Source: a virus. Taken from it: 64,000 nucleotides of DNA. The stretch covers positions 12,949 through 76,948 of IMG/VR virus record IMGVR_UViG_3300005099_000066; one strand, written 5' to 3'. The notes below the pieces were generated by a model. The model saw only the letters and a program-made list of their open reading frames with translations, made no database searches and was not told where the DNA came from. Of this stretch, positions 23,142-51,276 are shown one piece after another. The translations under genes were made by a program, and so were the position numbers. Each line of letters begins with the position of its first letter. Position 1 is the first letter of the stretch.

Positions 23142-23801
23142 ATGAGACTGATAATATCTCCACATTGGGATGATTTCTTTCTTTCAGTTCCTTTGGATTT
23201 GATTGTAGATTCTACTGTTGTTATTGTTGCTGGTTACAAAATAAAGTTTGCTAAAGATGTCCTCTCTGAATTATTTGTTAAATATAATGTAAATTTCGAA
23301 TATTTAAATTTGGTTCAGCCAAGAAGGAGATGGATGAAAAATGAAGGTTCTACATGGTGGTTTGTTGATGATTTGGCTTTTGAAATTGCAAAGAAGATAA
23401 AGAAATTGAATTTGGAAAAGTTCAATGAAATCTACATTCCTGCTGGTTATATACATCCTTATCATTTGTTGGTTGCTAATGTTTGTGTTCATATTATGGA
23501 TATAAAGAACAGAATTATCTATGCTGATAGACCATATTATGATTTGTTAAAAAACAACATACAATATAATACACAGAAAGGTTTGAAATGGATGTATGAG
23601 AAATGGATTTCTAATTGGAGTCAGAATATTATGCCGTATTTTCCTTGGGGTGGAGGACCAGTTGTTGTTAATTTAGATAATTGGAGAAGAGAAGGAAAGT
23701 TGGTTCCTTTTGATATTGCTTATGATATAGTAAGATTTGTTGAAGGAAAATCCTTTGTTTTAAGAAAGCCTGATGATGAGTGGGGCTATGTTTGGAAATA
23801 G
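23142..23801 (+). CDS. PIG-L/LmbE-family de-N-acetylase
   Basis: ISPHWDD (PHxDD), GYIHPYH (HPDH variant), IYADRPYY (YxDxPY). Confidence 0.75.
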   Translation: MRLIISPHWDDFFLSVPLDLIVDSTVVIVAGYKIKFAKDVLSELFVKYNVNFEYLNLVQPRRRWMKNEGSTWWFVDDLAFEIAKKIKKLNLEKFNEIYIPAGYIHPYHLLVANVCVHIMDIKNRIIYADRPYYDLLKNNIQYNTQKGLKWMYEKWISNWSQNIMPYFPWGGGPVVVNLDNWRREGKLVPFDIAYDIVRFVEGKSFVLRKPDDEWGYVWK

Positions 23802-24171
23802 AAATTCTTTTTCTATTTGTATTCAAACTCCGTATACGCTGGAATTTGAGCTATCATATGTTTCTTTGTCTTTGAAAAATCTGATAAAAGACACTATGTT
23901 AACTATTGAAAAGATTGAGACTATGATTCAGTATGGAAAGCCAAATTCTCAATTATTTAATGCTCTTTTACAGCAAAGAAAATTCTTGAAAGAATTGGCT
24001 GATTCTGCTGATATGAGAAAGACAGAGATTCTTGGGATTCTGAATAAGGCTATGACAAAAGTTGCTTATGAATTTTCTGGTTATGATGATGAGAAGAAAA
24101 AACTGATATATGAAACATTTAATAAATTAGAAGAACAAGTAATGCAGATATTGGAAAAGGAGTTGAAATGA
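23773..24171 (+). CDS. Hypothetical alpha-helical protein
   Basis: ORF overlapping both deacetylase and glycosyltransferase. Confidence 0.55.
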   Translation: MMSGAMFGNRNSFSICIQTPYTLEFELSYVSLSLKNLIKDTMLTIEKIETMIQYGKPNSQLFNALLQQRKFLKELADSADMRKTEILGILNKAMTKVAYEFSGYDDEKKKLIYETFNKLEEQVMQILEKELK

Positions 24172-25517
24172 AATATATTGATTATGTTAATTTATGGAGA
24201 TATTATTTGCTTGAGTATGAAGCTTTTGAAGATTACTTGAGTTCGAAAAAGCTCCCTCATATGATTATTGTTTATAAGTATGTTGACCAAGCTGGAGGAT
24301 TGCCTATTGCTGCTTATACAAGAAAGAAAATATGGGAATATGCAGGAGGAACTGCTGAACTGGTGGTCATATATGATAGAAAATCTGTTGTTGATATTCC
24401 TTCTGGATGGATAAGAAGAAGTAGAGGTTTGTTACCTCCTGCTGATGTAAAATTATCAAAGCTCAATTACAAGAGGGGGCTTAATAAACTTATGTCTGAA
24501 CATGGTGAAGGAATTGTTTATTGGATGGCAGGATTACAGGCATTTAGATTGGAACCTGAAGTTCTTGAATTCTTTAAAAATCAGAAATCTAAATTTCCTA
24601 AATGGTTGTTTTTAGTTGAACATGGGGATATAGGATTGGTTAGAATGAAAGAAGAAGAATGGGAAGCTTTTATTGAATCTTTTGATTTTGTATCATTTGC
24701 TTCTCCTTGTAAATACTACCACTGTAGGAATAGATATAAATTTAAACCGAAGAATAAAAAATATTTTTCTTTGTTCCTTGTCCCTCTGAAATTTGAGTCT
24801 GAATTCGTTCCTTTTTCAGAAAGAAAGATTTTGAATACTTGGCTTTCTGGTATATTTGCTTGGAGACATCCTTTTGATTGGTATAATTTTGTTGATGAAA
24901 AATACACTTCTTACTTGAAAATTATGAGTCATCAAAGAAGGTCATTTTCAAGAAATTTTAAACCTCTTGGAGTTAAATATTACGATGAAGCAAAAAGAAG
25001 ATTTCCTGAATGGTTTGGCAATAGAAAAAATGCTGGGGCTACTTATACTACTCCTGACAAATTTTCATATGCTGAGTGGAGAAGTATATTGTGGAAAGCT
25101 TCTTCTGATGGAACTCCTGGGACTTGGTTAGATGATACAACTCCATTGGAAGCTATTTGTTCTGGAACTCTTGTTGTTTCAAATTATAGGTTTGCTTCTA
25201 ATCCTCTTTGGAAGTTTGATGGTGAAAATAATGTTTTGTTTGAAATGGATTCTGTAACAGCTTTTGAAGCATTTTTGGATGATTTGTTAACAAATCCAAA
25301 GCCTTATGAAGATTGGGCAAGATATGTCTGGGGAAGATATTCTTATCAAATTGTTAGAGGAACACTTACTGCTTATCTTATTTTCACCCTGTATGAAGCT
25401 TGGAAATCTAATAAGTTAGATGAATACAAGTTATTTCTTGAGGATGATGAAGTTTTTCCTCTTTTTGAAAAAGATATAGAAGCTTCTTTAAAAATTATGA
25501 GGGGAGGTGAGATATAA
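24168..25517 (+). CDS. Putative GT-B glycosyltransferase (candidate DNA glycosyltransferase)
   Basis: N-terminal beta strand then AGG; C-terminal TPLEAICSGTLVVSN resembles the GT4 EAxxxGxPVV motif; 449 aa, basic and aromatic-rich. Confidence 0.55.
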   Translation: MKYIDYVNLWRYYLLEYEAFEDYLSSKKLPHMIIVYKYVDQAGGLPIAAYTRKKIWEYAGGTAELVVIYDRKSVVDIPSGWIRRSRGLLPPADVKLSKLNYKRGLNKLMSEHGEGIVYWMAGLQAFRLEPEVLEFFKNQKSKFPKWLFLVEHGDIGLVRMKEEEWEAFIESFDFVSFASPCKYYHCRNRYKFKPKNKKYFSLFLVPLKFESEFVPFSERKILNTWLSGIFAWRHPFDWYNFVDEKYTSYLKIMSHQRRSFSRNFKPLGVKYYDEAKRRFPEWFGNRKNAGATYTTPDKFSYAEWRSILWKASSDGTPGTWLDDTTPLEAICSGTLVVSNYRFASNPLWKFDGENNVLFEMDSVTAFEAFLDDLLTNPKPYEDWARYVWGRYSYQIVRGTLTAYLIFTLYEAWKSNKLDEYKLFLEDDEVFPLFEKDIEASLKIMRGGEI

Positions 25518-26784
25518 CATGATAAAGGAGAAACTTCGCTTTGTAAGATGTAAAGTTTGTGGTTTTCCATATGAACTTCACTGGGAGGAGTGTGAAGGAG
25601 AAAGAAATGTCTTTGCCATAAAAACGAACTCTTTTGTTAAATCAGGAAATGAAAAAAAGTATAGTTTGAATTCGAGATGCCCCATTTGTGGAGCAAAATT
25701 TTCTAAGAATTTGGAAGAATGTAGTGATATGGATTATTTTACTTATTATTCGATTTGGAATTCTGGTGAAAAATGGATAAAGATTATTGATGATGTTCGT
25801 AATTTCAATACTGTATTCGCAAAACATGACAAAAATATTTTTGTGAAGTTTCATAAGGGCAAAAACAATGTTGATTTGTCTAATGAGGATTTGGTAATAA
25901 ATATGGCCAAAGTTGATTTTGTTGAAATGAAAATAAAAGAGGTTTGTTTTCATTTCAGCAATGGTTCTTTGTTAACTTTAATTTTAAAATTACCTCAGAA
26001 GGAGGAGAATGATGAACAGGGCACAAAAGAGATTGTGTGAAGAAATATGGAGGGTGTTGCCTTTCCCTCCGACAGATGTAAAAACATTTGATGAGTATAA
26101 GAAGTTTCTATTTAAAACATATGCCATACAACTTGATGACTTTCCTGTATGGATAATTTCATATATAGAGAAACATTTTGAAGGCCAGGCTGACGAATCT
26201 GAAGAACTTATGTATGGTCCTTAAAAAGGGGGTGAAAAATGAATATACAAAAAGTAAAACAGGAGTTGGAAAAAGCTGAAAAAATTGTTGAGAATGTTGC
26301 TGAAGAAATAAGAAAAAACATGGAATCTTCTGATACTCCGAATTTGTCTGAAGAAGATATGGAAAAAGAATTCCTTTTTATGCAGGCTATGCGTTTGTTG
26401 AATAAGATTGGAGCTATGAAAGATTTTTCCTGGAGACGCATCGAAATTTTAGAGGACACTCCTATTATATTTAAGATACGAACTTCTTGTGCTTGTGGTC
26501 TTCCAGAGGATTCTTTGACTGTTGAATATTACAGAAAGCATGGTGAAGTATATTTGTATTTATATAATTATTGGTATGACCATCTTGGTTTAGACCCAGC
26601 TACTCCTGCTATAATTTGGAATTTGAAGCGTTTTTGGAATAGATTAAAGATGTTGTGGAAAATTTTTGTTACGGGAAAATTAGAACTATATGGAGAATTT
26701 ATATTCGAAGATTTTAATCATCTGAGAGATTTTATTGAAGCATTGAAGACAATTAATGCAGAATGGAAGCAGAAATCTGAATAA
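25507..26784 (+). CDS. Three hypothetical proteins (25507-26040 Zn ribbon; 26009-26224; 26239-26784)
   Basis: CKVCG...CPICG in the first; coupled ORFs with RBS. Confidence 0.55.
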
Positions 26785-26840
26785 TGGCTGGTTTAATCTC
26801 TAAAATAAAGAGGAACAAAAATTGATAAAGGAGGTTTGAT

Positions 26841-27446
26841 ATGAAGAAGACAATATATGATGAAACACTGCAAGCAATAGGAGAAAAAGTAATAGAGAAG
26901 TTTCATCCACAACTTATGACTTCAGAAATTATGTTTTTATTTGCCGATGATTTGGGAGGATATGGTGGAAGATTTGTATTAGGTAGAGTCAGAAGAGCGA
27001 ATCCAGTTGAAAAGATGTTATATAAGAAAATTTCTGGGGTTCAAAAACCTCTTGAATTTGTTGTTTTGTTGGATTTTCCATCCTCTGTATATGCTTCTGA
27101 AGATTTTGTTGAAATAAAGAGCAAGGTTTTGTTGAGAACAATAGACCATGAACTTTGCCATATAAGAGTTCAAAAGTCAGAAGAAGGTGAGGAAAAGAAA
27201 AAGTTGGTAGGCCATGATTTTGAAGATTTTAAAGATGTTATTGAAAGATGGGGAATATTAGAATTTGTTCAGAACAATTTGGGAGATGAACTCGTTGAAA
27301 GATTGGGAGATTTAATTACTACTTTAAATTCTAAATTGAATGTAATAATAAATGATTTATATGGTTCTTCTGAGGAATTTCTTGAAAGATGTTCCAAAAA
27401 ATTTAGAACAGCTTCTGATATCCAGATTCAATTTCTAATAAAATGA
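26841..27446 (+). CDS. Putative phage metallopeptidase
   Basis: IDHELCHI...GHDFEDFKDVIERWG. Confidence 0.75.
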   Translation: MKKTIYDETLQAIGEKVIEKFHPQLMTSEIMFLFADDLGGYGGRFVLGRVRRANPVEKMLYKKISGVQKPLEFVVLLDFPSSVYASEDFVEIKSKVLLRTIDHELCHIRVQKSEEGEEKKKLVGHDFEDFKDVIERWGILEFVQNNLGDELVERLGDLITTLNSKLNVIINDLYGSSEEFLERCSKKFRTASDIQIQFLIK

Positions 27447-27459
27447 AAGGAGGAGATTT

Positions 27460-29940
27460 ATGTATTCAGAAGGATTTGTAGAATTTAGAGATGCTGTTGC
27501 AAGAGAAAAGTATTTTCTTGAAGGAGAAGAAAGCTGGGATGATGTAATAAAAAGAGTATCAAATGAGATTGGAAATTTTCTCGAAAACAAGTTAAAGCAT
27601 GAAAACAAGGGAAATTTATATAGGGAGATGTATGGCGACAAATCCCCTTCAGAAATCTTCTATAACATGATGTCCCAGAATATATTTATTCCAGGAGGCA
27701 GAATTCTATATGGAGCGGGCAATCCCAATAAAGTGACATTAACAAATTGTTATGTCTTACCTTCTCCAGATGATTCTATTGAAGGTATAATGAAGCTTGC
27801 TACTGAAATGGCTTTGACTTATAGGGCAGGCGGTGGAGTTGGATTTGATATTTCATCCTTAAGACCAGAAGGCTCTCCTGTGAGAAACGCAGCACGAACA
27901 TCCACAGGAGCCTGGAGTTTTATGGAGTTGTATTCTTTAATAACAGGTATAATAGGACAAGCAGGTAGAAGAGGTGCTTTGTTAATAGCTATGGATATAT
28001 CACATCCAGATGTTCTGAAATTTGTATCTGCTAAATCAATAATTTCTCCCAATAATAAAAAGTTTCTACAGCAGGCTTCCTATTTTGGTTGGACTCCAGA
28101 ACAATTGGAGGCAGCAGAAAAGATACTTACTATGTCACAAATAAGGTTTGCTAATCTATCTGTGAAACTTACTGATGAATTTATGAAAGCAGTGAAAGCA
28201 GGAGAGGAGTGGGCTTTCAGATGGAAAGGGAAAGTTATGAAAACAATGCCAGCCAGAGATGTGTTTAAGTATATTGCTGAATTTGCCTGGAAAACTGCTG
28301 AACCAGGGATTTTATTTGTAGATACTGCTAAAAGATATTCAACAACTGAATATTTTTCTCCTATTGTTAATACAAATCCTTGTGGAGAACAGTGGCTTGG
28401 AGCTTATGGGAATTGTAATCTGGGGGCAATAAATGTTGGAAGTCCAGTCTTCTTTAGAGATGGATTTTTTGATTATGTTAATTTTGGTTACTACATAAAA
28501 GTAGCAATTTTGTTTATGAATGCTGTAATCTGGTATAATCTTGATAGACATCCTCTCCCTGAGCAAAAGAAAACTGCTGAAAGGGAAAGAAGAATTGGGC
28601 TTGGAATAATGGGATTGGCTGATGCTTATATAAGAAAAGGAGTTGAGTATGGAGAAGGGAGTTTTACTTCCAAGCTTGCTGAAGTTCTTGCTTATTATGC
28701 TTATTCAGCGAGTATACAACTTTCAAAAATATTTGGTTCATTTCCTGATTACGACCCAGATAAACATTTTGAACAAGAGTATTATAAAAGACTTATTGAA
28801 GAATATCCAGAATTTGAGAATTTATTTAAAGAAGCAAAAGAAGTGGGATTGGCGAACTCTGCTCTTCTAACAATAGCTCCTACGGGAACTACTTCAATAA
28901 TGGCAGGTGCTTCATCAGGTATAGAGCCTGTATTTGGATGGAAAGTCCAAAGATGGTTTGAAACAGCAGGCAAAATGTTTGAATTTTACCATCCAGTATA
29001 TTATGAGTATATAAACAATAACTCTGATGAAAAGCTACCTGAGTATTTTCAAACTTATGCTGATGTTGATTATAGAACAAGATTGGATACTCAAGCAATT
29101 TTACAGAAATTTATTGACAATTCTATTTCTTCGACTGTGAATTTGCCTGAATCTGTTAGTGTTGAAGATATAGAAAATCTGTATATGGAGGCATGGGAAA
29201 AGGGATTGAAAGGCATAACAGTTTACAGAGAGAATAGCAGATTTGCCGTAATCAAAAAGAAAGATGAAAAGTCAGAGGAAAAACAAGAAAAGAAAGAGAA
29301 AAGAGAAGAACTCAAGATATTTATACCTGCTCCAAAAAAGGCAGGGCTTGAAGGAAAAAGATATAGATTCAAATATAAAGACACAGGAATATACATAATG
29401 GTATTTGGAGAAAACAATGTTCCCAGGGAAGTATTTCTGGGTAGTAAAAATTTGAAGTGTTGGGATTTTGCTATTGCTTTGAATACAACTCTGTCAGAAA
29501 TTCTCAGAAGTCTGCCTGAGGATTTGGCAATAACATTTGCTAAAAGAATGGTGAAAAAGTATAAATCATTATCTACGGGAGATTCTGCTTTTATATTTGG
29601 AGAGAAGCTTGGCTCAGTTGTGGGATTGTGGGGTTTGGCTTTGGATTGGTATATGAATGGAATTGACCCAAATGAACTTGAGGAAGAAATAAAGAGAAGC
29701 CTTCTAACAGTGAACATCCCAAATAAGCCAAAGCCTTCTCTAAAAACTTACAACAGCAGTTTTGTTGTTTTATATGAGGGATTGGATTTGAAAAATGGAG
29801 CAGAACTTCCAAATGACGCAGTTATTTCGAGATGTCCTTCTTGTGGTGCTAAACATATAACAAAGGGAAGACCATATTCGTTTGATTGTGAACATCCCTG
29901 TATGGTTTGTGGTTATTCAGAAAAATGTCCAGGAGATTGA
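27460..29940 (+). CDS. nrdJ: Class II (adenosylcobalamin-dependent) ribonucleotide reductase
   Basis: PGGRIL, NCYV, GGGVG, RRGA, TNPCGEQ, CNLG, IAPTGT, SSGIEP, ISSTVN, KGITVYR; C-terminal Cys ribbon; no adjacent beta subunit. Confidence 0.92.
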   Translation: MYSEGFVEFRDAVAREKYFLEGEESWDDVIKRVSNEIGNFLENKLKHENKGNLYREMYGDKSPSEIFYNMMSQNIFIPGGRILYGAGNPNKVTLTNCYVLPSPDDSIEGIMKLATEMALTYRAGGGVGFDISSLRPEGSPVRNAARTSTGAWSFMELYSLITGIIGQAGRRGALLIAMDISHPDVLKFVSAKSIISPNNKKFLQQASYFGWTPEQLEAAEKILTMSQIRFANLSVKLTDEFMKAVKAGEEWAFRWKGKVMKTMPARDVFKYIAEFAWKTAEPGILFVDTAKRYSTTEYFSPIVNTNPCGEQWLGAYGNCNLGAINVGSPVFFRDGFFDYVNFGYYIKVAILFMNAVIWYNLDRHPLPEQKKTAERERRIGLGIMGLADAYIRKGVEYGEGSFTSKLAEVLAYYAYSASIQLSKIFGSFPDYDPDKHFEQEYYKRLIEEYPEFENLFKEAKEVGLANSALLTIAPTGTTSIMAGASSGIEPVFGWKVQRWFETAGKMFEFYHPVYYEYINNNSDEKLPEYFQTYADVDYRTRLDTQAILQKFIDNSISSTVNLPESVSVEDIENLYMEAWEKGLKGITVYRENSRFAVIKKKDEKSEEKQEKKEKREELKIFIPAPKKAGLEGKRYRFKYKDTGIYIMVFGENNVPREVFLGSKNLKCWDFAIALNTTLSEILRSLPEDLAITFAKRMVKKYKSLSTGDSAFIFGEKLGSVVGLWGLALDWYMNGIDPNELEEEIKRSLLTVNIPNKPKPSLKTYNSSFVVLYEGLDLKNGAELPNDAVISRCPSCGAKHITKGRPYSFDCEHPCMVCGYSEKCPGD

Positions 29941-29960
29941 TGTCATCAAGGAATTAGACT

Positions 29961-30164
29961 ATGCCTACTTATATTTACAAATGTAAAAAGTGTAGTTATA
30001 TATTTGAAAAGGAATTTAAAGTAGGTGAAGTCAGAAAGAATTTACATTCTTCTGAGTTGCAAAAGTGTCCAAAATGTGGAGGAGAAGTTTATAGAATTTA
30101 TACTTCTCCCTCACTCAGATTTGTAGGTTCTGGATTTTATGTAAATGATTACAAGGGAAAATGA
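29961..30164 (+). CDS. FmdB-family zinc-ribbon protein
   Basis: MPTYIYKCKKC...CPKCGG...FVGSGFYVNDY. Confidence 0.85.
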   Translation: MPTYIYKCKKCSYIFEKEFKVGEVRKNLHSSELQKCPKCGGEVYRIYTSPSLRFVGSGFYVNDYKGK

Positions 30165-30204
30165 GTTGGAAATTGAATCTAATGAAATAGGGGAGGTGAA
30201 AAGA

Positions 30205-30591
30205 ATGAATAAAAAATTGAAAGAATTTTTTGAAAGTCTGCCAAAAATAGAAGTGCTGAAAATGACTTCCCTTTCAGAATTCGAAGAGCCATTTTCATTG
30301 ATGTTTGAGTTGTATATGGCAAAGAATAAAGGTTATGGAGCTTCCTGGAGAAAGAGAGGAATTCCAAGTTCTTTTGAGAATATAAGCAGAAAATATGACA
30401 GACTTCTTGTTCAAGTAGAAAAATCTAATTTTCATCCAGAAAATCTTTCAAATGAAGAAAAACTTGATTTCTTTGATACGGCAATTGACCTTGCTGTGTA
30501 TTCATATCTTTTTCTTTGGTTTGTATATGATTTGTTTGGAGAAGAAATAGTAAAGGAGTGGAGAAAGAAAGTAGGATTGGAAAATGGATAA
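30205..30591 (+). CDS. Nucleotide-modification-associated domain (DUF1599/Nmad1-like, MazG-like helical)
   Basis: KNKGYGASWRKRG...ISRKYDRL...DTAIDLAVYS. Confidence 0.7.
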   Translation: MNKKLKEFFESLPKIEVLKMTSLSEFEEPFSLMFELYMAKNKGYGASWRKRGIPSSFENISRKYDRLLVQVEKSNFHPENLSNEEKLDFFDTAIDLAVYSYLFLWFVYDLFGEEIVKEWRKKVGLENG

Positions 30592-32962
30592 AACTCTGAG
30601 AGAAGAATGTAAAAATTGTATATTCTTCAATAATGCGTATGTTCCTCCAGAATATCCTTTTGGTGATGAAAAAATTGATGTTTTGTTTATAGGAGAAGCT
30701 CCTGGGGTAGAAGAGGAAAGACTTGGAAAGCCATTTGTGGGAAGGTCAGGCCAATTATTTAGAGATGCTCTTGCTGAATTTATAAAGGAATTTCCTCATC
30801 TGAAATTTGGAATAACAAATGTTGTGAAATGCCATCCTCCCAATAATATGACTCCCAAATCAGCTGAAATAAAATTGTGTAAGCCTTTGCTTCTTGATGA
30901 GATAGAGAAGTATGACCCAGATTTTATAATACCTTTAGGAAACACAGCTCTTCAAGCAATAGTTGGAAGGGCAGGTATTCAGAAAAATTTAAATCAAGTT
31001 ATAACTAAAGTTGTTGCTGGAAGGGAGAGAACAATAATACCAACTTTTCATCCTGCTGCTATTTTAAGAAATCCTCATCTATTACAAGATTTTGTGAGAA
31101 CATTTGGTATATTAGAAAAGATAATGAAAGGACAGGTTCTTGAGTTGGAGGATTTCATAGTTGTAGATGATTTTAGGAAGATTGAAAATATGTTGAATGA
31201 TTTATCAAATTCTAAAGCATTTGCTTTTGACCTTGAGACTTCTTCTTTGAATCCTTTTTCTGAGAATGCCAAAATTCTTTGCTTGTCTTTGTCAAATGGG
31301 AAAAATACTTATGTTATCCCTGCTAAAGATTATGAGATGTCTAATCTGATTGACTTGTTAAAAATTGTTTTTTCCCTTCCAGCTAAAAAGATTGCTCACA
31401 ATGCGAAATTTGATGTGAAATGGTTAAAAGTTTTTGGTGTGGAAGTTAAGAATCTGGCTTTTGATACTATGATAGCCCACTATTTGATTAATGAAAATTT
31501 GCCTCACTCTCTGGCTTTTATTCTATCTGAAATGGGATTTGTTGACCACAAAGGAGATTTTTCAAGAGCTGTTGGAGGGGAAACTGCTACTTGGAAGGTG
31601 TTATCTGATGAAGAAAAGCTTAATGAATACTGGGATGTTCTTCTTGAGTATAATGCGAAAGATGCTTGGTCAACTTATTTAATCTATGAGAAATTAAAAG
31701 ATAAACTCGAATCAAGTCAGGTTTGGTTAATGGAAAATTTTTATATTCCTTTGATATACACATTTTCAGAAATAGAAATTTATGGGATGAAAGTTGATTT
31801 GAATAGAATCCAGTATTTATCCCAGAAGTATAAGAATGAAATGAAGAAAATTATATCTGAAATGGAAAATTTATCGTCCGTCAAATTTTGGAAGACTCTA
31901 CATCCTGATGAAAAATTTAATCCATCTTCGACAAAGCAAGTTGCTGAAATTATTTTTGATATAGAGAAATTAGAAGTTATTGCTATGACTCCGAAAGGAG
32001 CACCATCGACAAAGAGTGAATTTCTTGAATTTCTTGCCTCGAAATCGAAATTTGTTAAATTGTTGTTAGAATATAGGAAAATTATGAAAAACGAAACTGC
32101 TTTTATAAAAGGCATTCAAAAACATATAAAAATAGATGGATGTGTTCATCCCTCTTATAATCTTATTGGAACAGTGACGGGCAGAATATCTTGTAGAGAG
32201 CCAAACATACAACAGATACCAAAAGATTCAGAAATAAGAACAATATTTGTTCCAAAACTTGATTGGTTTATAGAAGCTGACTTTTCACAAATAGAGTTAA
32301 GAGTTGCTGCTTCTTTGTCTGGGGACCCATATATGATTGATGCTTATAAAAAAGGTGAAGACTTACATACAAAAACTGCTTCTTCCATATTTGGGAAGAG
32401 ACCAGAAGAGGTTTCAGAAGAAGAACGATTTGTGGCAAAAACTATTAATTTTGGTATTTTGTATGGAATGGGAGCAAAGAGTTTACAGGCAAGAGTTTCC
32501 AGAGAAGGAATAAATATACCTTTGAAAAAGGCAGAAGAATATATCAGAAAGTTCTTTATAGCCTATCCTGTTTTGAAAGCTTGGGTAGATGAGCAAAAAT
32601 CAAAAGTTCTTGGTTCCAGAATGGTAGTGTCTCCTTTTGGAAGAATTAGAAGATTAATGGGAACTTCTGATGATGATTTGAGACAGGGTGTAAATGCTCC
32701 TGTTCAGGGAACTGCTTCTGATTTAACTTTGTTTTCTGTGATGTTTCTTCACAATGAATTTAAAAGGAGAGGTTTGAAATCCCATATAGTAGGTTCAGTT
32801 CATGATTCAATATTATTTGATGTGGCTGATGAAGAATTACACTGTGTTGTGACTCTAATAAAACAGATAATGGAAGGACTTGATTTTGATTTTATAAAAG
32901 TTCCTTTGAAAGTAGATGTTGCAATAGGAAAGGCATGGGGAGAAATTTTAATGGAGGTATAA
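30584..32962 (+). CDS. polA: Family A DNA polymerase with N-terminal family-4 UDG-like domain and 3'-5' exonuclease
   Basis: UDG: CxxC, GEAPG, KCHPP..C, HPAAILRN. Exo: DLET, HNAKFD, YNAKDA. Pol motifs: ADFSQIELR, KTINFGILYG, VHDS. Confidence 0.95.
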   Translation: MDKTLREECKNCIFFNNAYVPPEYPFGDEKIDVLFIGEAPGVEEERLGKPFVGRSGQLFRDALAEFIKEFPHLKFGITNVVKCHPPNNMTPKSAEIKLCKPLLLDEIEKYDPDFIIPLGNTALQAIVGRAGIQKNLNQVITKVVAGRERTIIPTFHPAAILRNPHLLQDFVRTFGILEKIMKGQVLELEDFIVVDDFRKIENMLNDLSNSKAFAFDLETSSLNPFSENAKILCLSLSNGKNTYVIPAKDYEMSNLIDLLKIVFSLPAKKIAHNAKFDVKWLKVFGVEVKNLAFDTMIAHYLINENLPHSLAFILSEMGFVDHKGDFSRAVGGETATWKVLSDEEKLNEYWDVLLEYNAKDAWSTYLIYEKLKDKLESSQVWLMENFYIPLIYTFSEIEIYGMKVDLNRIQYLSQKYKNEMKKIISEMENLSSVKFWKTLHPDEKFNPSSTKQVAEIIFDIEKLEVIAMTPKGAPSTKSEFLEFLASKSKFVKLLLEYRKIMKNETAFIKGIQKHIKIDGCVHPSYNLIGTVTGRISCREPNIQQIPKDSEIRTIFVPKLDWFIEADFSQIELRVAASLSGDPYMIDAYKKGEDLHTKTASSIFGKRPEEVSEEERFVAKTINFGILYGMGAKSLQARVSREGINIPLKKAEEYIRKFFIAYPVLKAWVDEQKSKVLGSRMVVSPFGRIRRLMGTSDDDLRQGVNAPVQGTASDLTLFSVMFLHNEFKRRGLKSHIVGSVHDSILFDVADEELHCVVTLIKQIMEGLDFDFIKVPLKVDVAIGKAWGEILMEV

Positions 32963-32963
32963 A

Positions 32964-33299
32964 ATGATAGATATGTTTGATTATAATTCTAATCTCGAAA
33001 AGACTGTTTTTCAAATTATTTCCGAAAGTTGGGATTTGGATGATGAGGAATTAACTGAAAGAGTAAGATTCTTTTTGTTGGAATATATAACAAAATGGTT
33101 TTTTGATAATTATAATGATTTAGTTAAAGTTAAGGGAAATGATATATATTTCTCCAAAAAGTTTGTGCTAAATTATTTATATTTAGCAATACCAGATAAA
33201 TTAGAATCAGAATGGTATGAGCTTTATGTAGGGACAAAAAGGAAGAATGGTGAAGAAATGAGATTTATTTATTTTAAACCAACAAAAGAGGAGGTGTAA
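32964..33299 (+). CDS. Hypothetical protein
   Basis: 111 aa with GGAGG RBS. Confidence 0.55.
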   Translation: MIDMFDYNSNLEKTVFQIISESWDLDDEELTERVRFFLLEYITKWFFDNYNDLVKVKGNDIYFSKKFVLNYLYLAIPDKLESEWYELYVGTKRKNGEEMRFIYFKPTKEEV

Positions 33300-33301
33300 A
33301 G

Positions 33302-41398: not shown

Positions 41399-42040
41399 AT
41401 GACTCTAATAGATAAAGGAAGATTAAAAATGAAAGTTTCTGAAGTTGTGTCTGTTTGGAGGAAAGTTATTACTATGAAGAAAATAAAAACTTCGGTGAGA
41501 GGAAAAAGAGCGGAGCAAATAATAGAAAAATTGCTTAACAAACATCCAGCAGATGAAATCGTGTCTGTATTTGCTTCTTTACCTTCAAATTCCAGATTTG
41601 AATTATGGTGGTTGTTAAATGATAAGGCTTATGAAAGATACTTAAAGTCTTCTGAAGCAAAACAAAGGAAAGGCTCTTCAGAAGGAATAGAGCCATCTTT
41701 TAGAAATGATTTAGAATATGTATTCAATTACTTTATAAGAATGAACATACCCAAAATAAGACAGAGAAAGATGACATATCAAGAACTTTTGATGAGTTTG
41801 CCTTCTTTCGAACCACAGGTTCAAAGTTGGTTATTAGTTGACCCTGTTTATAGAGAACTTTCGAAATTGAGAATAATTCAGCCAAAAGAAACAAAACATC
41901 TGAAGGCTTTATATAGAAAAAAGTCAATAAGACAAAAACTTGAAACAGAATTTCAAAATTTTGTAGAACATCATCCTGATTTGAGAGAAATAATAAGTGA
42001 AGAATTGGAAGTGCTTGAGGAATTTAAACAGGAGGTGTGA
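41399..42040 (+). CDS. Hypothetical basic protein upstream of helicase
   Basis: 213-aa ORF; function (possible loader) not supported beyond position. Confidence 0.55.
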   Translation: MTLIDKGRLKMKVSEVVSVWRKVITMKKIKTSVRGKRAEQIIEKLLNKHPADEIVSVFASLPSNSRFELWWLLNDKAYERYLKSSEAKQRKGSSEGIEPSFRNDLEYVFNYFIRMNIPKIRQRKMTYQELLMSLPSFEPQVQSWLLVDPVYRELSKLRIIQPKETKHLKALYRKKSIRQKLETEFQNFVEHHPDLREIISEELEVLEEFKQEV

Positions 42041-43292: not shown

Positions 43293-44691
43293 ATGGGAGC
43301 TCATGGAAATTATGGAAGAAATAACGGTCAAATAAAGGTAGCTTATTTAAATTGGGTTAGAAAGTATGTTGTTTCTTTGTCTGATGAAAAGATTGTCGAA
43401 GACTTGAAGATTTTGGAGAATCTTCCGAAAGGCTATTATGATTGGGAAATTATTGCATGTCCACATTTCTCTCCAGAAGAATTTGAGTATATATCGAAAT
43501 TTTATGTTGATTATTTGGGTCACGAGTTGAGATTCGCAATAAGAAAGAGAACATTTTACGATGGGGAGTATGTTTGGGAAAATTCAGAGGAGGGAAGTGT
43601 AATATGATTATTTTTGCTGTGTCTGTGTTTATTGCTTGTGTTGCTTTGTTTGTATTTTATTTGTTGAATATAAATAAATTTTTAAAAAGGAGGAGTGATG
43701 AAATGAATGAAAAAGCAAAAAATAAAAGCCTGGTAGATAAATTGTTAGAATTGGGATTTGAAATAATAATCCGCAAATCACATGAGAAAAAATTCGAAAG
43801 AGTTGCTGTTGAAATAATGCTATCAAAGAAAATAAAGTATCAGTCTCAGGATGTCGGATATATAGAAATAAAGTCATTTGGAATGGCAAATGATTTTGAG
43901 ACAGCTTTAAGAATTGCTGTTAAGAGGCTTGAGCCTCTTATAAAAGTAGAGGAGGTATAGAAAATGTTTGTAAAAATGTATGAAAAAAATGAAAAGCCAC
44001 GTAATATATTTACAGCATATCAGCTTGAGGAAGTAAAGGTGATAAAAGTAGGAGAAGAAAATTCTGAAACAAAAATCAAGTTATGGATAAAAGCTTCGTT
44101 TCCAGAAAAGGATGTTATTGAAATAGTATTAAATGAGGATGAAATGGTAAAAATTGCTAATTTATTGAATGAAAATGATAGGAGGTGATAAAGATGAGGG
44201 AATTAACAGCATATCATATAACTATAAGAAAGGACAAAGTATCATGGCCAAATGATAGTTTCAGGTCTGCTGAACATCAATTTTATAAATGTAATGATGG
44301 TAAAATAATAGTAGTTGCGAGTGACCCTTTCCTTATTCTTGAAAGATTAAAAATGGGAGATGTTGTCGAAAAAATAGAAGTTTTGGGAACTGGATATGTT
44401 TTCCAAAAGAGACCATCACTTTCAGAATTTGTTGATTTTGTGAGTTGTTACAAGGAAACTTTAGAAGAACTAAACAAAGCTATATCAGACAAATTTGGAG
44501 AAATGAAAACTGAAATCGAGTTTGATAAAAAAGTTATGTTTATTACTATTTACTCAACTCTCACTCCAGCTGAAACGTGGAACAGATTAGATAGAATATG
44601 CAAACAATTTGACTTTGCTGAATTGCCCATAGTCATAAGAATTGAACATGTTGATAGTGATAAAGAACCAAAAAAGGTGGTAACATTATGA
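43293..44691 (+). CDS. Four hypothetical proteins (43293-43607, ~43604-43960, 43964-44188, 44185-44691)
   Basis: Coupled ORFs with GGAGG RBS. Confidence 0.5.
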
Positions 44692-45212
44692 AAAGTGAAA
44701 CTGCTTTCTATTTGATGCAAATATTTATGGACAAATATAATGAAGTATTGCCAGGGGGAATCGAGGTTAAAAGAACTGACGAATTCCATCAATTTTTTGA
44801 TTCGATGGAGTGGATTTATGAATTTCTTGAGAGAAAGAATATACCGAAAGATAAGTTCGAATTGGTATGGGAAGCACAAAGAAGATTAAGAGAATTCTAC
44901 AAAAGGGCAAGACCAGAGTGGTTTGAAGAATCTAATCTCCAGAGGGCAATAACAAAAACAATTGCTATGCTTGTTGAGTCAGCTGAAACTTTGAATGAAC
45001 TTCCCTGGAAACCTTGGAAATCGAAGGAGTTTAACAGGAAGAAAATTCTTGAGGAGTTTGTTGATGTCTTTCATTTCTGGATGGATGCTCTACAGGAAAT
45101 GGGCTTTACGCTTGATGAAGTTGTTGACTGTTATATTAAGAAATGCAGAAAGAACATAGTTAGACAATACAAACATGAAGGATATAAATCAAAAACTTTG
45201 GAGGAAAAATAA
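44688..45212 (+). CDS. Dimeric all-alpha dUTPase-family NTP pyrophosphatase
   Basis: VESAETLNELPWKPWK...LEEFVDVFHF...YIKKCRKNIVRQ. Confidence 0.85.
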   Translation: MKSETAFYLMQIFMDKYNEVLPGGIEVKRTDEFHQFFDSMEWIYEFLERKNIPKDKFELVWEAQRRLREFYKRARPEWFEESNLQRAITKTIAMLVESAETLNELPWKPWKSKEFNRKKILEEFVDVFHFWMDALQEMGFTLDEVVDCYIKKCRKNIVRQYKHEGYKSKTLEEK

Positions 45213-45535: not shown

Positions 45536-46555
45536 ATGACTATTGTTATCAAATCAAATAATTTCTTCGAGGCAATAAATGAGGTATTCTTTCTCATAAA
45601 GGATAAAGGAAAAGTCAGAAAAACAAGAAACACAGAATCTGTCTATATACCTGATTTAGTTGTTATTGATGTAAAAGACCCAACTAAATTTACTTCATAT
45701 CCCCATCCTTCCAGGAAGGTTTTTCCTCCTGCTCAATTTTATGAAGTTGCTTGGGTATTATCTGGAAGAAATGATGTGTTGGGATTGGAATTGGTTTTGA
45801 AAAGGGCAAGACAATTTTCTGATAACTTTCATCAATGGAGAGGAGGGTATGGTCCCCGAATACATTGGAATAGAAATATATTTAAGATAATAGAATTGTT
45901 AAACAAAGACCCAGAAACAAGAAGAGCAATCCTTCCTATATTTTTTCCAGAGGATGTCGAAGCAACTCATTGGTCTTTGGATATTCCTTGTTCGATTATG
46001 ATTCACTTCCTTCCCATAGATGATAGGCTTGATGCAAGATTTTTTATCAGAAGCAATGATGCCTTCTGGGGCTTTACTCATATAAATTTCGTTCTGATAA
46101 GAACAATCCAGAGAATAGTTGCTTATTTCTCAAACAAAAAGGTAGGACATTTACAATACATTGCTTCAGATTTGCATGTTTACAAAAGGCATATGAACAG
46201 ACTTGAAAAAATATTGAAAAGTGTTGTCTTTCCTACTTTAGTTAAATCATACCCCTGGGATGTCTTTGAGGATAATGAATTTGATAGTCCAGAAAGTTTC
46301 TTTAAGATTTTACAAAGAGATTTGGCTGTGCTTGATTATGTTTTGATGGATAAGTCAATAAAGAAAACAAAAAGCAAATTTTTACTTGATTCAAAACCTG
46401 CTGATTACTTATTGAATTCCCCTCTCAGAAGATGGTGGCTTCCCATTTTGGCTTGGAAGAAAGGTAATTTGGAAATTATGAAAGAATATATTGATAATGT
46501 TGAAGAAACTGATGTATATGAGGCTTTGGAACTATGGATGAGAAAAGAACAATAA
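45536..46555 (+). CDS. Thymidylate synthase homolog, probably dUMP hydroxymethylase
   Basis: YGPRI, ETRRA, DIPC (catalytic Cys), IRSNDAFWGFTHIN, LHVY. Confidence 0.8.
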   Translation: MTIVIKSNNFFEAINEVFFLIKDKGKVRKTRNTESVYIPDLVVIDVKDPTKFTSYPHPSRKVFPPAQFYEVAWVLSGRNDVLGLELVLKRARQFSDNFHQWRGGYGPRIHWNRNIFKIIELLNKDPETRRAILPIFFPEDVEATHWSLDIPCSIMIHFLPIDDRLDARFFIRSNDAFWGFTHINFVLIRTIQRIVAYFSNKKVGHLQYIASDLHVYKRHMNRLEKILKSVVFPTLVKSYPWDVFEDNEFDSPESFFKILQRDLAVLDYVLMDKSIKKTKSKFLLDSKPADYLLNSPLRRWWLPILAWKKGNLEIMKEYIDNVEETDVYEALELWMRKEQ

Positions 46556-46806: not shown

Positions 46807-46917
46807 AACATGAAATTAAAAAGTATTTTGTATAATGTGTTGTCTCTTATTTTGTTAATAATTCTTTTACCAATAGCAATGATATATGTATCTTCAAACA
46901 AATGGAGGTAGCAAATT

Positions 46918-47472: not shown

Positions 47473-47481
47473 GAGGCTGAT

Positions 47482-47841
47482 ATGTTTTTGTATTTAATAC
47501 AAAGAATAATAATTTGTTTAATTGTGTTAATTATTGCCTATATAGCATTTGTTATATATTCTGTAAAAACAGACAGACTTTCTCCTGTTATTCATTTGGG
47601 ATTGTTTTTTGTTATTATCTTTTTGCTTGCAGGAATATTTGTTTCTATTCAAAGGGCAGTTGAATCGAGAATTCCTTATATTTCATTCGAAAGAAAACCA
47701 ACTTATGTTTATTACAAATTAAAATGTCCATACTTTGTTTCAATGGATATTTATGTTCCGAAAAGACTCTCAGATAAATTTGAGAAAGATTATAATGTTT
47801 CTAAAACTGGAGAAGTTAAGTTAAAGTGTATAATTAAATGA
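47482..47841 (+). CDS. Two-TM membrane protein
   Basis: Two hydrophobic helices followed by a soluble domain. Confidence 0.55.
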   Translation: MFLYLIQRIIICLIVLIIAYIAFVIYSVKTDRLSPVIHLGLFFVIIFLLAGIFVSIQRAVESRIPYISFERKPTYVYYKLKCPYFVSMDIYVPKRLSDKFEKDYNVSKTGEVKLKCIIK

Positions 47842-47938
47842 TTATATTCAACTGGAATCAGCTGGCTAATTTCAAATTTCTTTTTACTTTCGATAGATTT
47901 TGTGTTTTTAATTTCAAGCTTCGTTATCAGCATGTTTG

Positions 47939-48011
47939 ATGTGTGGAAATTTTCCAATTTTTGATAAAATCGAATCTAATATAATAGAGATGGAAATAAA
48001 AAGGAGGTAAA
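47939..48011 (+). promoter_or_regulatory. Repeated promoter+RBS cassette, copy 4
   Basis: 73 bp identical to 14113-14185. Confidence 0.85.
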
Positions 48012-48017
48012 ACAAGA

Positions 48018-50750
48018 ATGAATGGAGAATGTAAACTGATAAAAGTAGTAATAGAAAAGATGTTTAGAGGTAATACCGTGGTGGCAACATATACAAATGT
48101 AGATTATAGAGAAAACAAAGTTCTTATTCCCAAGAAAACTGAATATAAATTTGATGAACTTGGATTTAAAGAATCTGAAAATTCGATGCTCTTGTTCGAC
48201 AAAAAAGATGAAAGTCACTACTTTACGATTTTAAATGATTCAGTAGAAACTCTGTCCTATAAATATCACCCAGATAATAAGAAAGTTGTTCTGAAAATTT
48301 ACTTTAAAAATGGGGATTTTCTTCAGCTGGAGAGAACTTTATGAAATTTTATGAACTTGAAGAAGGGAAAATTTATCTATCTCAAAGAGGATACAGAGTG
48401 GCAAGAATAGGTGAATTTTTGTATGTGTTGTGCACTGGAAATTTTATTGTAGAACAACATGACAAAGATGGATTTAATGAGTATCCTTTTCCAACTTACT
48501 TTCCGAAATCAAGTTTGTTGTATGAAGAATTCATAAAGGGACCACCTGCTGTTCAAGAACAGATAAAGAATGGTAGAGCAAAGAAAGAGATTGTTTATAA
48601 ATCTCAGAGAGGAGTCAGAAATTTTGTTAAAAGAAAATTCGAAGCTTTCAGAAAGAAGATGATAAAAGAAAAGGCTTTACTTTACGGTTCTAAAAGATTA
48701 AATAATGAGAGAAAGAGAATTGAAGAAGAATCCAAAAGAAAGGTGAAAAGAAAAAGAAGATGAAGACAATTACAGGATTGCGGAGGTGTAATAGTGAAAC
48801 TTGTTAACAAGTCAGTTCCTTTGATTGTTGAAGATTTTTCTACTTTGGAGTTGGAATTAGTGGATATAGGTTATTCTCCAAAATTGAACAAAATCTTTGT
48901 AAAGGTAAATTTCAAAAATAATGCTGGAAAAGTAGGTCAGTTTGAAGTGGAATATAGTTCTTTGCATAGTGAAATAAAAAAGATTAATGAAAAGTATTAT
49001 TTAAGAGTCAGGGAGGTGAAAATAAAATGATATTATTTATTTTCATTTCAATTGTTGTTGTTTTTATTCTTGTTGGCTTGATTGTAGCAATAATTGCTGA
49101 TAAAAGTCTTGTGGAATTTCTGCTTCTTATAGCAATAATAGTTTGTGTTGGAGGTATTGTAGGAAAGAGAGCAGTTGAAGCAATAAACATATATAAGGAG
49201 TTGGTGGCATTAAAACAACAAATTGTGGCTTTAGAACATAATGTTGATAGGATACGCACTGCTATTTATCAGGAAAACAATAATTCTGCCTTTGATTCCA
49301 AAAATTTCAAACAATCTACTAATTTATCAAATTATTTGAGAAAAGTTGCTGAATTAAAAGGAGAATATAACTACAAATTGAGAAAAGCTTATTTTCATCG
49401 TCATTACTGGCTTTATTATTGGTTTTGGGATGGATTTCTCATTCCAAGTGCAATTGATACAATGCAATATTACTAAATCAAGGAGGAAAATATGAAAGAA
49501 GAGCTAAAAGATAAATTGTGGAATACTATTATAAAGCATTTAGTATTTATTCGACAAACCACAACAATTAACAAAGAAGCATTGGTATCACAGCCACAGA
49601 ATGCATTTGAAAATTTGAATTCCATACTACATGAAGAAATTGTGAGAGATTTGGTTGAAGGAGCGAAAAAACATATAATTGTTACTTCAGAAACAGACCC
49701 AGAAACATTGAGCATAATGCTTACTGGAAAATTGGTAGTTGTAAAAAATCCAGAAGAATTTTTGGAAAAAATAAGACAAATTCTTGATGAAATGTAGGAG
49801 CAAAATATGTATTTTTCAAAATACTTATGGGAAATTGCAGGAATTAAATTGGTATAAACTAATGGGAAGGAAATCATGATTGCAAAAATTATACTTGTTG
49901 TGTTATTTTCTCTGGTTACTTTCATAAGTTTCTTTACTTATTTAATAGATTTGATTCCCAAAAATCTTGATGACAGGAATGTAGGAGCAGTGATTTGGAT
50001 TTCTTTTATAATAACAGTTGTGCTATGTAAAATTCTACTTTTTAAATAGAAGGAGAAAACTATGGGAATGGAAAATTATGTTGTGTCATTAGAATTAGCA
50101 AAGGAATTGAAAGAGGTGGGGTTTCCGCAGAATGATGGAGAATGGTATTGGATACAAGTAAGGCTTGGCTATAAATGGGAATGGAAGTTATACTTACTTG
50201 CGAATTCCCCTTATGCCATTGACAATGATAAAATCAGAGCTCCCCTTGTTGAAGAAATTACTAAAGAATTACCTGACCATATTGCGATTGAAAGGGATGG
50301 AGAAAGGAAAAAGTATTGGTTAAACATTGAAGTCTATAAAGAAGGTTGCCGTGCTGGATATAGAACTGACCCTGCTACGCTTGGTGAAATGCCAGAATGG
50401 TTGTATGTAAGTGATGTATATCCCAAGCTCTCAGATGCTCTTGCTCAATTATGGCTCTGGGCTTACGAACGTGGGTATTTGGAGGAGAGAGATGAAGATT
50501 AAAATTGAAACAAAAGAGACACCTATCCAGGAATTTGTAAAAATGTTATATAAATATGGTGAGATATGGGCAGAAGTCCCCTGGAACATACCACAGCCAC
50601 GAATTGCCCTGTACTGCTATTCTGCGGTTTGGTGTTGATGAAAAAGGATTTTACTTTTATAGTGATAGCAAAGGTAAGGTCTATTTGGATATTTATAAAA
50701 TTCCTTCTGTGCATTTAGTAACAATTACGGAGGAGACAAATGAAGATTAA
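48018..50750 (+). other. Second array of small hypothetical genes (48018-48344, 48341-48763, 48794-49030, 49027-49476 membrane, 49492-49797, ~49877-50049 membrane, 50062-50502 and others)
   Basis: Short ORFs with RBS behind cassette copy 4; 50062 begins YVVSLELAKELKEVGFPQ, typical of phage hypotheticals. Confidence 0.5.
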
Positions 50751-51276
50751 TGTAAACAACATTGTTAGATTGAGCTATATAAAAAGATTTTCTATGTTAA
50801 GAGTAAACTATCCACAGACAGTTGCTGACCACTCATACAGAGTAGCTATGCTGGTTCTCATAATTGCGGATAGACTAAATCTGTCTGAAAAGAAAACATA
50901 TGAGCTTGTTATACAGGCTTTGCTTCATGATATAGAGGAGAGTGTTCTTGGTGATGTCCAGTATTACATAAAGCATATTCCAGAAGTCGAAAAGGCTTTA
51001 GATGAATACAAGAGAAAATTTGCTTCTCAGATTCCTATACTAAATGATGAAGATGAAGACAGAATTGTAAAAATAGCAGATATGTTAGATTTGCTTTTAT
51101 ACACAGAAGACGAACTCCGTTCAGGGAATACTCATCCTGATATAATACAGTTAAGAGAAAGAGCCCAGAGAATATTGAATGAACTTACTTCGGATGATTC
51201 TGAATTAAAAGAAATTGTCTTTGATATTTATTCGCAATTCAGAAATCAACCAACTTATCCTGGTCCTGGAAAATAA
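50740..51276 (+). CDS. HD-domain 5'-deoxynucleotidase (YfbR/DatZ-like)
   Basis: LSYIKRF...QTVADHSYRV...ALLHDIEESVLGD...VKIADMLD. Confidence 0.88.
   Translation: MKINVNNIVRLSYIKRFSMLRVNYPQTVADHSYRVAMLVLIIADRLNLSEKKTYELVIQALLHDIEESVLGDVQYYIKHIPEVEKALDEYKRKFASQIPILNDEDEDRIVKIADMLDLLLYTEDELRSGNTHPDIIQLRERAQRILNELTSDDSELKEIVFDIYSQFRNQPTYPGPGK

Follow-up and report, generated by a model that had tools for sequence, protein, structure and literature searches.

Does the phage represented by the 76,948-base IMG/VR virus contig IMGVR_UViG_3300005099_000066 replace the thymine of its DNA with 5-hydroxymethyluracil (hmU), and does it further decorate the replaced base with an amino sugar? Both steps had been proposed in an earlier note for a block of genes in the window, that is, the whole stretch of 64,000 nucleotides analyzed here (bases 12949-76948 of the contig; all positions below are those of the window). 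The open reading frames (ORFs) named in that note are all present where it placed them and form one co-oriented block on the + strand. The enzymes acting at the nucleotide level stand up to closer analysis, whereas the assignments of two other genes to the GT-B glycosyltransferase and PIG-L deacetylase families do not. The reading favored here, to which we give a joint probability of roughly 0.6-0.7, is that an uncultured tailed phage, known from marine sediments and hydrothermal vents, carries this block as the arm of its genome for replication and nucleotide metabolism and would replace thymine in the manner of phage SPO1 by 5-hydroxymethyldeoxyuridine (hmdU) made at the nucleotide level, with an accessory, strain-variable gene trio alongside. 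The contig is estimated to be 61% complete, so that about 39% of the genome lies outside it.

Predicted synthesis and incorporation of hydroxymethyldeoxyuridine

The key enzyme of the predicted pathway is a member of the thymidylate synthase family (45536..46555, + strand), which matches the Pfam family Thymidylat_synt (PF00303) with an E-value of 1.2e-16 and only 61 bits. Against the ThyA equivalog models of NCBIfam it scores 53-55 bits, far below every one of the respective cut-offs (108-576), and its top match in the PDB is the CMP hydroxymethylase MilA (7e-13). The best matches among cultured phages are the Montesquieu protein annotated as 'thymidylate synthase/pyrimidine hydroxymethylase', the 'deoxyuridylate hydroxymethyltransferase' of Kuttervirus, and proteins of Maribacter phages and of Pam3. 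The sequence was aligned with Escherichia coli ThyA, T4 gp42, SPO1 gp29 and the homologs from Kuttervirus, Pam3, Montesquieu and the Maribacter phage Colly_1. All catalytic columns are kept (C152, R172, S173, D175, H214 and Y216, the equivalents of ThyA Cys146, Arg166, Ser167, Asp169, His207 and Tyr209).

Three positions of ThyA are informative with regard to substrate and product: N177 sets dUMP versus dCMP, L143 correlates with a methyl versus a hydroxymethyl product, and the D169N replacement marks 5-hydroxylases (PMC13326640). The position of N177 is occupied by Asn, within an INF motif, in the window protein and likewise by Asn in SPO1 gp29, Kuttervirus, Pam3, Montesquieu and Colly_1, T4 gp42 having Asp. 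At the position of L143, three residues before the catalytic Cys, the window protein contains Asp (LDIPC), as does every hydroxymethylase aligned (KDRPC in SPO1, KDMIC in Kuttervirus, KDVPC in Pam3, SDFMC in T4), in contrast to the Leu of E. coli ThyA (LAPC). The equivalent of Asp169 is retained in an RSND motif. The hydroxymethylase-type signature attributed to this gene in the earlier note is thus recovered in the alignment, and the ORF reads as a predicted dUMP hydroxymethylase (5-hmdUMP synthase), an assignment based on the residues and the best matches rather than on phylogeny. A 5-hydroxy-dCMP synthase of the RB69 gp48 type, characterized by D169N together with N177D, was considered as well and ruled out by the Asp of the RSND motif and the Asn at N177.

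The second component is a helical protein related to the DUF1599/Nmad1 family that is encoded at 30145..30591 (+ strand) and overlaps the start of the DNA polymerase gene. The PF07659 model gives only 13.2 bits, below the cut-off of 25, and covers only profile positions 1-28, and hmmscan reports no match at E <= 10. In pairwise comparison, the protein matches SPO1 gp30 (E 3e-08 over 102 aa) and Pam3_54, annotated 'nucleotide modification' (E 2e-07, 50% identity over 26 aa), and it contains the core motif YGxSW..RG...RKxDRL. Thus, the proposed coupling of a DUF1599/Nmad-like protein to the polymerase gene holds with respect to both the homology and the overlap, even if the Pfam cut-off is missed. 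SPO1 gp30 is the product of a replication gene flanked by gene 29, for the hydroxymethylase, and gene 31, for the polymerase, and the Pam3_54 gene similarly lies between the synthase homolog and the polymerase of Pam3. Furthermore, in 42 of the 49 nearest synthase homologs outside the cluster of the window protein (P0005-P0053), the synthase continues at its C-terminus into the domain with this motif; the fusion proteins are 470-585 aa long and all carry the Asn signature. The synthase of the Glutamicibacter phage Montesquieu (L010:6998-8548) likewise has a C-terminal DUF1599/Nmad1 domain, and in the window, SPO1 (gp29 and gp30) and Pam3, the two are separate genes. Because the same domains are so commonly fused, the window synthase and the DUF1599-like gene are probably functionally linked despite being encoded 15 kb apart.

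The polymerase itself is a 792 aa fusion protein of the SPO1 gp31 type (30584..32962, + strand) that consists of a family-4 uracil-DNA glycosylase (UDG), a 3'-5' exonuclease and a family A DNA polymerase (PolA), matched in this order by the Pfam domains UDG (1.3e-29), DNA_pol_A_exo1 (2.9e-24) and DNA_pol_A (3.3e-96), as anticipated for a single SPO1-style ORF. It shares 30-32% identity with polymerases of the SPO1 group and other Herelleviridae over 96-99% of its length. The UDG domain (30584-30900) retains the GEAPG and HPAAILR motifs along with four cysteines and resembles an intact, not a degenerate, iron-sulfur UDG of family 4.

Two hydrolases that could edit the nucleotide pool share the operon-like block with the synthase, and the families proposed for both are confirmed. 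One is an all-alpha (dimeric/MazG-like) dUTPase encoded two genes upstream of the synthase homolog (44688..45212, + strand; Pfam dUTPase_2, 5.1e-15; phrog_173, NTP pyrophosphohydrolase, 2.8e-14). The other is an HD-domain protein (50740..51276, + strand), a YfbR-like 5'-deoxynucleotidase or dNTP hydrolase, as indicated by the matches to Pfam YfbR-like (6.9e-17), to the 5'-deoxynucleotidase model of NCBIfam (1.7e-10, below the cut-off) and, as its best PHROG, to phrog_7076 'dATP triphosphohydrolase' of the DatZ type (5.8e-23). The latter match prompted a 2-aminoadenine reading, which was dropped given that no PurZ was found in the contig.

Altogether, the locus displays three hallmarks of SPO1: a gp29-like synthase, and a gp30-like DUF1599 protein encoded directly before a gp31-like UDG-PolA. 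A pathway with all its steps deduced from homology can be outlined as follows. The all-alpha dUTPase would supply dUMP and hold dUTP low; the synthase homolog would add the methylene group of folate and admit water, yielding 5-hydroxymethyl-dUMP instead of dTMP; the HD enzyme would remove a competing canonical (deoxy)nucleotide; the DUF1599/Nmad1 protein, similar to SPO1 gp30 and fused to the synthase in most relatives, would assist; and the UDG-PolA replicase would incorporate hmdUTP, with its UDG domain excising plain uracil. The hmdU half of the proposal is supported by the diagnostic residues, the gp29/gp30/gp31-like gene content and the synthase-DUF1599 fusions, so that nucleotide-level hmdU, pool editing and an SPO1-style replicase can be retained from the original interpretation, whereas the glycosyltransferase adding an N-acetylhexosamine and the PIG-L enzyme exposing its amine cannot.

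A gene trio with a strain-variable cassette

The genes to which the sugar chemistry was ascribed are found at 23.1-25.5 kb of the same strand, where three ORFs overlap one another. The last of these encodes a 449 aa ORFan (24168..25517, + strand), possibly a very divergent GT-B glycosyltransferase. It is certainly a real gene, with a 449-codon frame in a genome of 32% GC, an AAGGAG site, an ATGA start overlap, and a composition that matches both its neighbors and the rest of the genome. Nevertheless, a word-indexed search of 5.8 billion proteins and a full phmmer search of 1.84 billion representatives retrieved only the protein itself; a pattern scan of IMG/VR and tblastn against 50,697 phage records retrieved no relative; phmmer against the PDB gave nothing at E <= 10; and BLASTP detected no similarity to the beta-glucosyltransferase of Colly_1. 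The only family signal is a sub-threshold one, to Glycos_transf_1 (PF00534) over aa 325-386 (12.5 bits, E 0.11, cut-off 26.4), which rises to 16.1 bits (E 0.008), still below the cut-off, for a fragment chosen post hoc. A six-frame scan of the contig with PF13524 yielded nothing at E <= 10, and PHROGs and NCBIfam contain no match. A protein language-model atlas offers a single lead, a viral cluster with GT-B families in 15-19% of the members. On visual inspection, the first strand is followed by a GG loop, and a run resembling a donor site (LEA..SG..VVSN / DGENN, aa 325-386) can be discerned, along with an acidic pair that is spaced unlike EX7E. The single-sequence AlphaFold2 (AF2) model is unusable, with a mean predicted local distance difference test score (pLDDT) of 33.8. 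The family assignment to GT-B is accordingly withdrawn, the odds that this protein is a glycosyltransferase are roughly even, and nothing indicates a DNA acceptor.

Comparison with related sequences reveals that this gene comes and goes among strains. A JGI contig (L007), found through the only homolog of the first gene of the trio, contains, in order, the upstream ORF, the PIG-L-like gene, the helical ORF and the zinc-ribbon ORF that in the window follows the putative glycosyltransferase gene. In blastn, L007 9-1259 corresponds to window 22918-24167 at 83% identity and L007 1274-2284 to window 25519-26529 at 97%, with 14 bases in L007 where the window has 1351. In a comparison of run contigs that covered window 19001-34000, two hydrothermal-vent runs that belong to different studies (X2 and X3) yielded Logan contigs in which 24167 is likewise joined to 25519 by those 14 letters, and the cassette-bearing form was found with zero differences in a sediment run (X5). 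The 1351-nt cassette indel is thus seen in three independent assemblies, of relatives about 97% identical to the window, and the putative glycosyltransferase gene varies in its presence from strain to strain. Synonymous divergence (dS) from L007 changes abruptly at the cassette, being 0.43-0.86 in the genes to its left and 0.10-0.13 in those to its right (window 22918-26529); the site is therefore also a sharp recombination (mosaic) boundary. The existence of a 96%-identical synthase homolog on another contig, the only observation bearing on this point, suggests that the strains lacking the cassette may keep the hmU enzyme. In the same comparison, the ribonucleotide reductase gene of the relatives in runs X2, X3 and X4 was longer by an in-frame insertion of 15 nt (window 28458).

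The middle gene of the trio (23773..24171, + strand) encodes a 132 aa helical protein that overlaps both neighbors and has no family match in Pfam, PHROG or NCBIfam; its counterpart in the cassette-less relative shares 92% identity, and the ratio of nonsynonymous to synonymous divergence (dN/dS) is 0.09.

The first gene (23142..23801, + strand) encodes a 219 aa Rossmann-like protein, a candidate enzyme of the LmbE/PIG-L fold. Neither Pfam, PHROG nor NCBIfam provides a family match at permissive thresholds, and PF02585 gives none at E <= 10 either by hmmscan or in a six-frame scan of the contig; sequence searches of the PDB with the single sequence and with a two-sequence profile returned only chance matches, with no LmbE chain recovered by the profile; and tblastn against the phage collection and the IMG/VR scan found no relative. 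Two LmbE-like motifs are present, H8-W-D10-D11 directly after strand 1 and H105-P-Y-H108 about 100 residues further on, a spacing like that between the zinc ligands of BC1534 and other small LmbE enzymes; these residues presumably correspond to the ligands of BshB and BC1534. The top cluster in the language-model atlas (score 0.95) is viral, and 21% of its members carry PIG-L. The structural model has a pLDDT of 48 and is usable only for residues 1-130 (50-76). With this low-confidence model, LmbE deacetylases rank first in Foldseek and in re-scoring (Z 8.2-8.4, root-mean-square deviation 3.4-3.8, 128-139 residues aligned), and Dbv21 ranks first in a separate scan of 48,161 chains (Z 8.2), all these values being within 1 Z of those for CARF, GT-B and other Rossmann folds and at a level that is commonly reached. 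The protein is probably LmbE-like in fold, so far as this model allows, and a candidate enzyme; its placement in the PIG-L family, for which there are motifs, a language-model lead and weak fold matches but no profile match, is not upheld.

The only homolog (P0003), 74% identical, comes from the cassette-less relative and has Tyr in place of His8, a predicted metal ligand, and Cys in place of Asp10, the predicted general base, with D11, H105 and H108 kept; two of the four predicted catalytic residues are thus replaced. The dN/dS of the pair is 0.26, which indicates purifying selection in the absence of the cassette. Given the cassette indel, the retention of the PIG-L-like gene without it and the lack of a family match for either gene, the trio is best regarded as an accessory module whose third gene occurs in some strains only and which is not at present assignable to DNA modification. 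The sugar half of the original proposal is left with no direct support: neither family is established, the supposed glycosyltransferase is missing from close relatives, and the predicted His and Asp are replaced in P0003.

Alternative readings and neighboring genes

Several observations weigh against the replacement of thymine by hmdU with the trio as a mere accessory. In a maximum-likelihood tree of 21 synthase homologs, which is unresolved and was not used for classification, long branches lead to the window protein, ThyA and gp42, so that phylogeny does not place the window protein among the proven dUMP hydroxymethylases, and the residue rule is a correlation. DUF1599 (Nmad1) is found together with ThyX and dUTPase in viruses of Asgard archaea (10.1101/2021.07.29.453957) and, for this reason, does not by itself indicate hydroxymethylation; it marks thymidylate-type chemistry in general. 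The HD enzyme has dTMP, dTTP and dATP as candidate substrates, its best PHROG being a dATPase family, and neither a dCMP deaminase nor a dNMP kinase was seen in the incomplete contig. The predicted PIG-L-like triad is intact in the strain with the cassette and broken in the one without it, a pattern that hints at functional coupling of the trio genes, even if only two lineages are compared. The unresolved tree and the DUF1599 genes of archaeal viruses also speak for an alternative in which the synthase would be a divergent but ordinary supplier of thymidylate, or a maker of another C5 product, within a dNTP-supply module of a phage with canonical thymine. The archaeal viral genes have been read as a dTMP supply (10.1101/2021.07.29.453957), and dUTPase, ribonucleotide reductase and UDG-PolA occur in many phages without modified bases. 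This alternative is nonetheless unlikely considering the Asp found in place of the water-excluding Leu143, the scores far below the ThyA cut-offs and the identity of the nearest solved relative, a hydroxymethylase; the retained Asp169 additionally counts against the 5-hydroxylase class. Hypermodification of hmU by other enzymes appears to be similarly improbable. A 5-hmU DNA kinase and an amino-acid:DNA transferase could be encoded in the portion of the genome outside the contig, or unrecognized enzymes, such as ATP-grasp or nucleoside deoxyribosyltransferase-like proteins, could be involved, and the closest cultured-phage synthase homologs, those of Montesquieu, Pam3 and Kuttervirus, all belong to known hypermodification clusters. 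Against this, when the Pam3 and Montesquieu representatives of the kinase-like, aGPT-Pplase, Nmad5 and PLP proteins were compared with the whole 77-kb contig by tblastn, nothing credible emerged, which agrees, within the 61% completeness of the contig, with the statement in the earlier note that the kinase and the transferase are not in evidence. Two weak matches recovered in these searches were discarded, namely that of Montesquieu aGPT-Pplase2 to ORF 41399-42040, a chance match (27% identity over 63 aa, no Pfam or PHROG support), and that of Kuttervirus Sa111 at 5865-6065, which lies antisense to the ORF at that position. The ATP-grasp candidates, two GARS-like genes (one without a Pfam match) next to a Nuc_deoxyri_tr2 gene at 3525-7396, are encoded on the opposite strand among structural genes.

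The two remaining alternatives concern the trio. Under the full amino-sugar pathway, at least the cassette-bearing strains would use the ORFan as a BshA/MshA-type GT-B enzyme to add N-acetylhexosamine to hmU, and the PIG-L-like protein to remove the acetyl group and thereby produce a cationic base. The overlap of the three genes inside a DNA-metabolism arm, the weak C-terminal Glycos_transf_1 motif and viral glycosyltransferase lead of the ORFan, the LmbE-like motifs, top-ranking LmbE folds and PIG-L lead of its partner, and the predicted catalytic residues being intact only in the cassette-bearing strain are all compatible with this scheme. There are parallels as well, in BshA/MshA-like phage enzymes that add N-acetylhexosamine to 5-hydroxymethylcytosine (5hmC) in DNA (10.1101/2023.12.21.572611) and in the block of glycosyltransferase and GlcNAc-deacetylase-like genes adjoining UDG-PolA in the thymidine-hypermodified phage Carin-5 (PMC12686479). 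However, neither family reaches a curated threshold, the ORFan has no homolog among 1.84 billion proteins and no usable model, close relatives dispense with the cassette while their PIG-L-like gene is still under purifying selection, and the fold match of the latter is tied with CARF and other Rossmann folds. Searches of the whole contig with the sugar genes of Colly_1 and the T4 beta-glucosyltransferase (tblastn) yielded nothing credible, no nucleotide-sugar (sugar-activation) genes were seen in the contig, and a cell-wall enzyme of the SLT family is encoded 3 kb upstream, so that an envelope target is equally open. Taken together, the evidence makes the full pathway very improbable, the least likely of the four alternatives. 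The ties in the fold list also bring up the possibility that the PIG-L-like protein is no deacetylase but another Rossmann-like protein, for instance a CARF-like binder of cyclic oligoadenylates or a ring nuclease with an anti-defense role. Csa3, Can2, Csm6, Cad1, Card1 and Csx1 fill a large share of this list at Z 6-8, and P0003, the sole homolog, lacks the predicted LmbE His and Asp even though its gene is under purifying selection. Still, LmbE entries lead the re-scored as well as the independent fold search and have the highest sequence identity (14-20% compared to 8-12%), the language-model atlas points to PIG-L, and both His-containing motifs are at LmbE-like positions, all of which renders the CARF-like assignment doubtful. 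The SPO1-type replacement of thymine with an accessory trio, then, is the reading retained.

The surroundings of these genes are those of a replication arm. The window has a GC content of about 32%, with a strong positive GC skew through the + strand block from ~11 to 51 kb, and the same arm encodes a gp32-like single-stranded DNA-binding protein, RecA, Mre11/Rad50-like proteins, RuvC, an SNF2 helicase and a DnaB-like helicase in addition to the large chain of ribonucleotide reductase, an enzyme of dNTP supply (27460..29940, + strand; Pfam Ribonuc_red_lgC, 3.4e-99). No tRNA genes were found within the window. DNA of the window occurs in marine-sediment and hydrothermal-vent metagenomes from several studies, and none of the runs that carry it, among the sequencing runs listed, is an RNA run. 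The SLT lytic transglycosylase gene (20006-20572), located early in the co-oriented block upstream of the PIG-L-like gene, encodes a protein with an N-terminal hydrophobic segment and shows that envelope-directed enzymes are encoded here too. Two Cys-rich, metal-binding proteins were detected at 21487-22302 and 12130-12651, with matches to DUF2284 (8.3e-15) and the zinc finger-like PF04071 (1e-06); these families are mostly from anaerobes and archaea. The Nuc_deoxyri_tr2 (nucleoside deoxyribosyltransferase-like) gene at 3525-7396 on the - strand adjoins a pair of PurD/GARS-like ATP-grasp genes, one matched by Pfam and the other a candidate without a Pfam match, and no purine genes besides this pair are present; a role of these genes in nucleotide or base chemistry is possible.

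If the hmU prediction is correct, a lineage of uncultured phages from marine sediments and hydrothermal vents joins those with SPO1-type thymine replacement, and the DNA of such phages may be mishandled by restriction- or polymerase-based methods. The synthase-DUF1599 fusions and the homology to gp30 also provide a lead on an essential replication gene of SPO1 and suggest that gp30 acts together with the hydroxymethylase. The sugar and amine idea, at present a hypothesis on two unassignable genes, one of them dispensable in nature, would be important if true: it would mean a positively charged base in place of thymine, produced with neither a DNA kinase nor an amino-acid transferase, and the cassette-plus and cassette-minus vent strains would offer an in situ comparison of two DNA chemistries.

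Comparison with known systems

The closest cultured-phage homologs of the window synthase are found in the thymidine hypermodification clusters of the phages M6, ViI/Kuttervirus, PhiW-14, SP10, PaMx11, Pam3 and Montesquieu, all of which begin from hmdU made by a thymidylate synthase homolog (PMC8989533). The window differs from these clusters in that no 5-HMUDK, aGPT-Pplase/AADT, PLP or radical-SAM partner was detected in its 77-kb contig. A second group, phages SP-15, YerA41 and Carin-5, contains oligosaccharide-hypermodified thymidines and a PolA whose N-terminal domain is UDG-like; in Carin-5, a block of glycosyltransferase genes that includes a GlcNAc-deacetylase-like gene lies beside the UDG-PolA gene, and the block of YerA41 is located analogously (PMC12686479). 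The juxtaposition of a glycosyltransferase and a deacetylase with UDG-PolA follows the same logic as that proposed for the window, and the assertion that no example had been described needs to be softened accordingly. The genuinely new part would be the de-N-acetylation to a free amine on DNA, which is also the part with the weakest support. Unlike the window system, these phages employ a (di)hydroxypentyl linker with a phosphate, and their glycosyltransferase and nucleotide-sugar genes are recognizable, whereas the putative glycosyltransferase and deacetylase of the window are not recognized by hidden Markov models.

Pairs of an LmbE/PIG-L enzyme with a GT4 glycosyltransferase (MshA/MshB, BshA/BshB, PIG-A/PIG-L) resemble the trio in the candidate H-x-D-D and H-P-x-H motifs of the window protein and in its best fold matches, which are of the Dbv21/Orf2*/BshB type. 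The differences are the lack of a PF02585 match, a Trp instead of Pro in the first motif, the replacement of the His and Asp in P0003 and the dispensability of the putative glycosyltransferase partner in relatives. In base J of trypanosomes, JBP oxidizes thymine in DNA and a GT-A enzyme then acts on the product; unlike the window proposal, this is not a nucleotide-level route. The transfer of N-acetylhexosamine to a hydroxymethylated base is itself reported, for phage GT-B enzymes that resemble BshA/MshA and act on 5hmC (10.1101/2023.12.21.572611). In the Maribacter phage Colly_1 (L011:3300-8059), the synthase homolog has the same Asn/Asp signature as that of the window, and genes for a UDP-glucose dehydrogenase, an epimerase and an annotated beta-glucosyltransferase are located directly upstream; Colly_1 is thus predicted to be a cultured phage that glycosylates hmU. 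The ORFan of the window is unlike the Colly_1 glycosyltransferase and is encoded 20 kb from the synthase rather than next to it.

The system that the window resembles most in its replication genes is SPO1. The proteins of the two are only 25-32% identical, the window synthase lies 15 kb from the gp30-like gene rather than next to it as in SPO1, there is no TF1-type hmU-DNA binding protein in the window, and the window system is a predicted one from a vent or sediment phage. The two share the Asn/Asp signature of gp29 in the synthase, the gp30 homolog before a UDG-exonuclease-PolA fusion, and pool-editing hydrolases in the same arm. Thus, the hmU half of the proposal matches the SPO1 paradigm and adds one more predicted case to it, and the sugar idea, for its part, is not without precedent among cultured phages.

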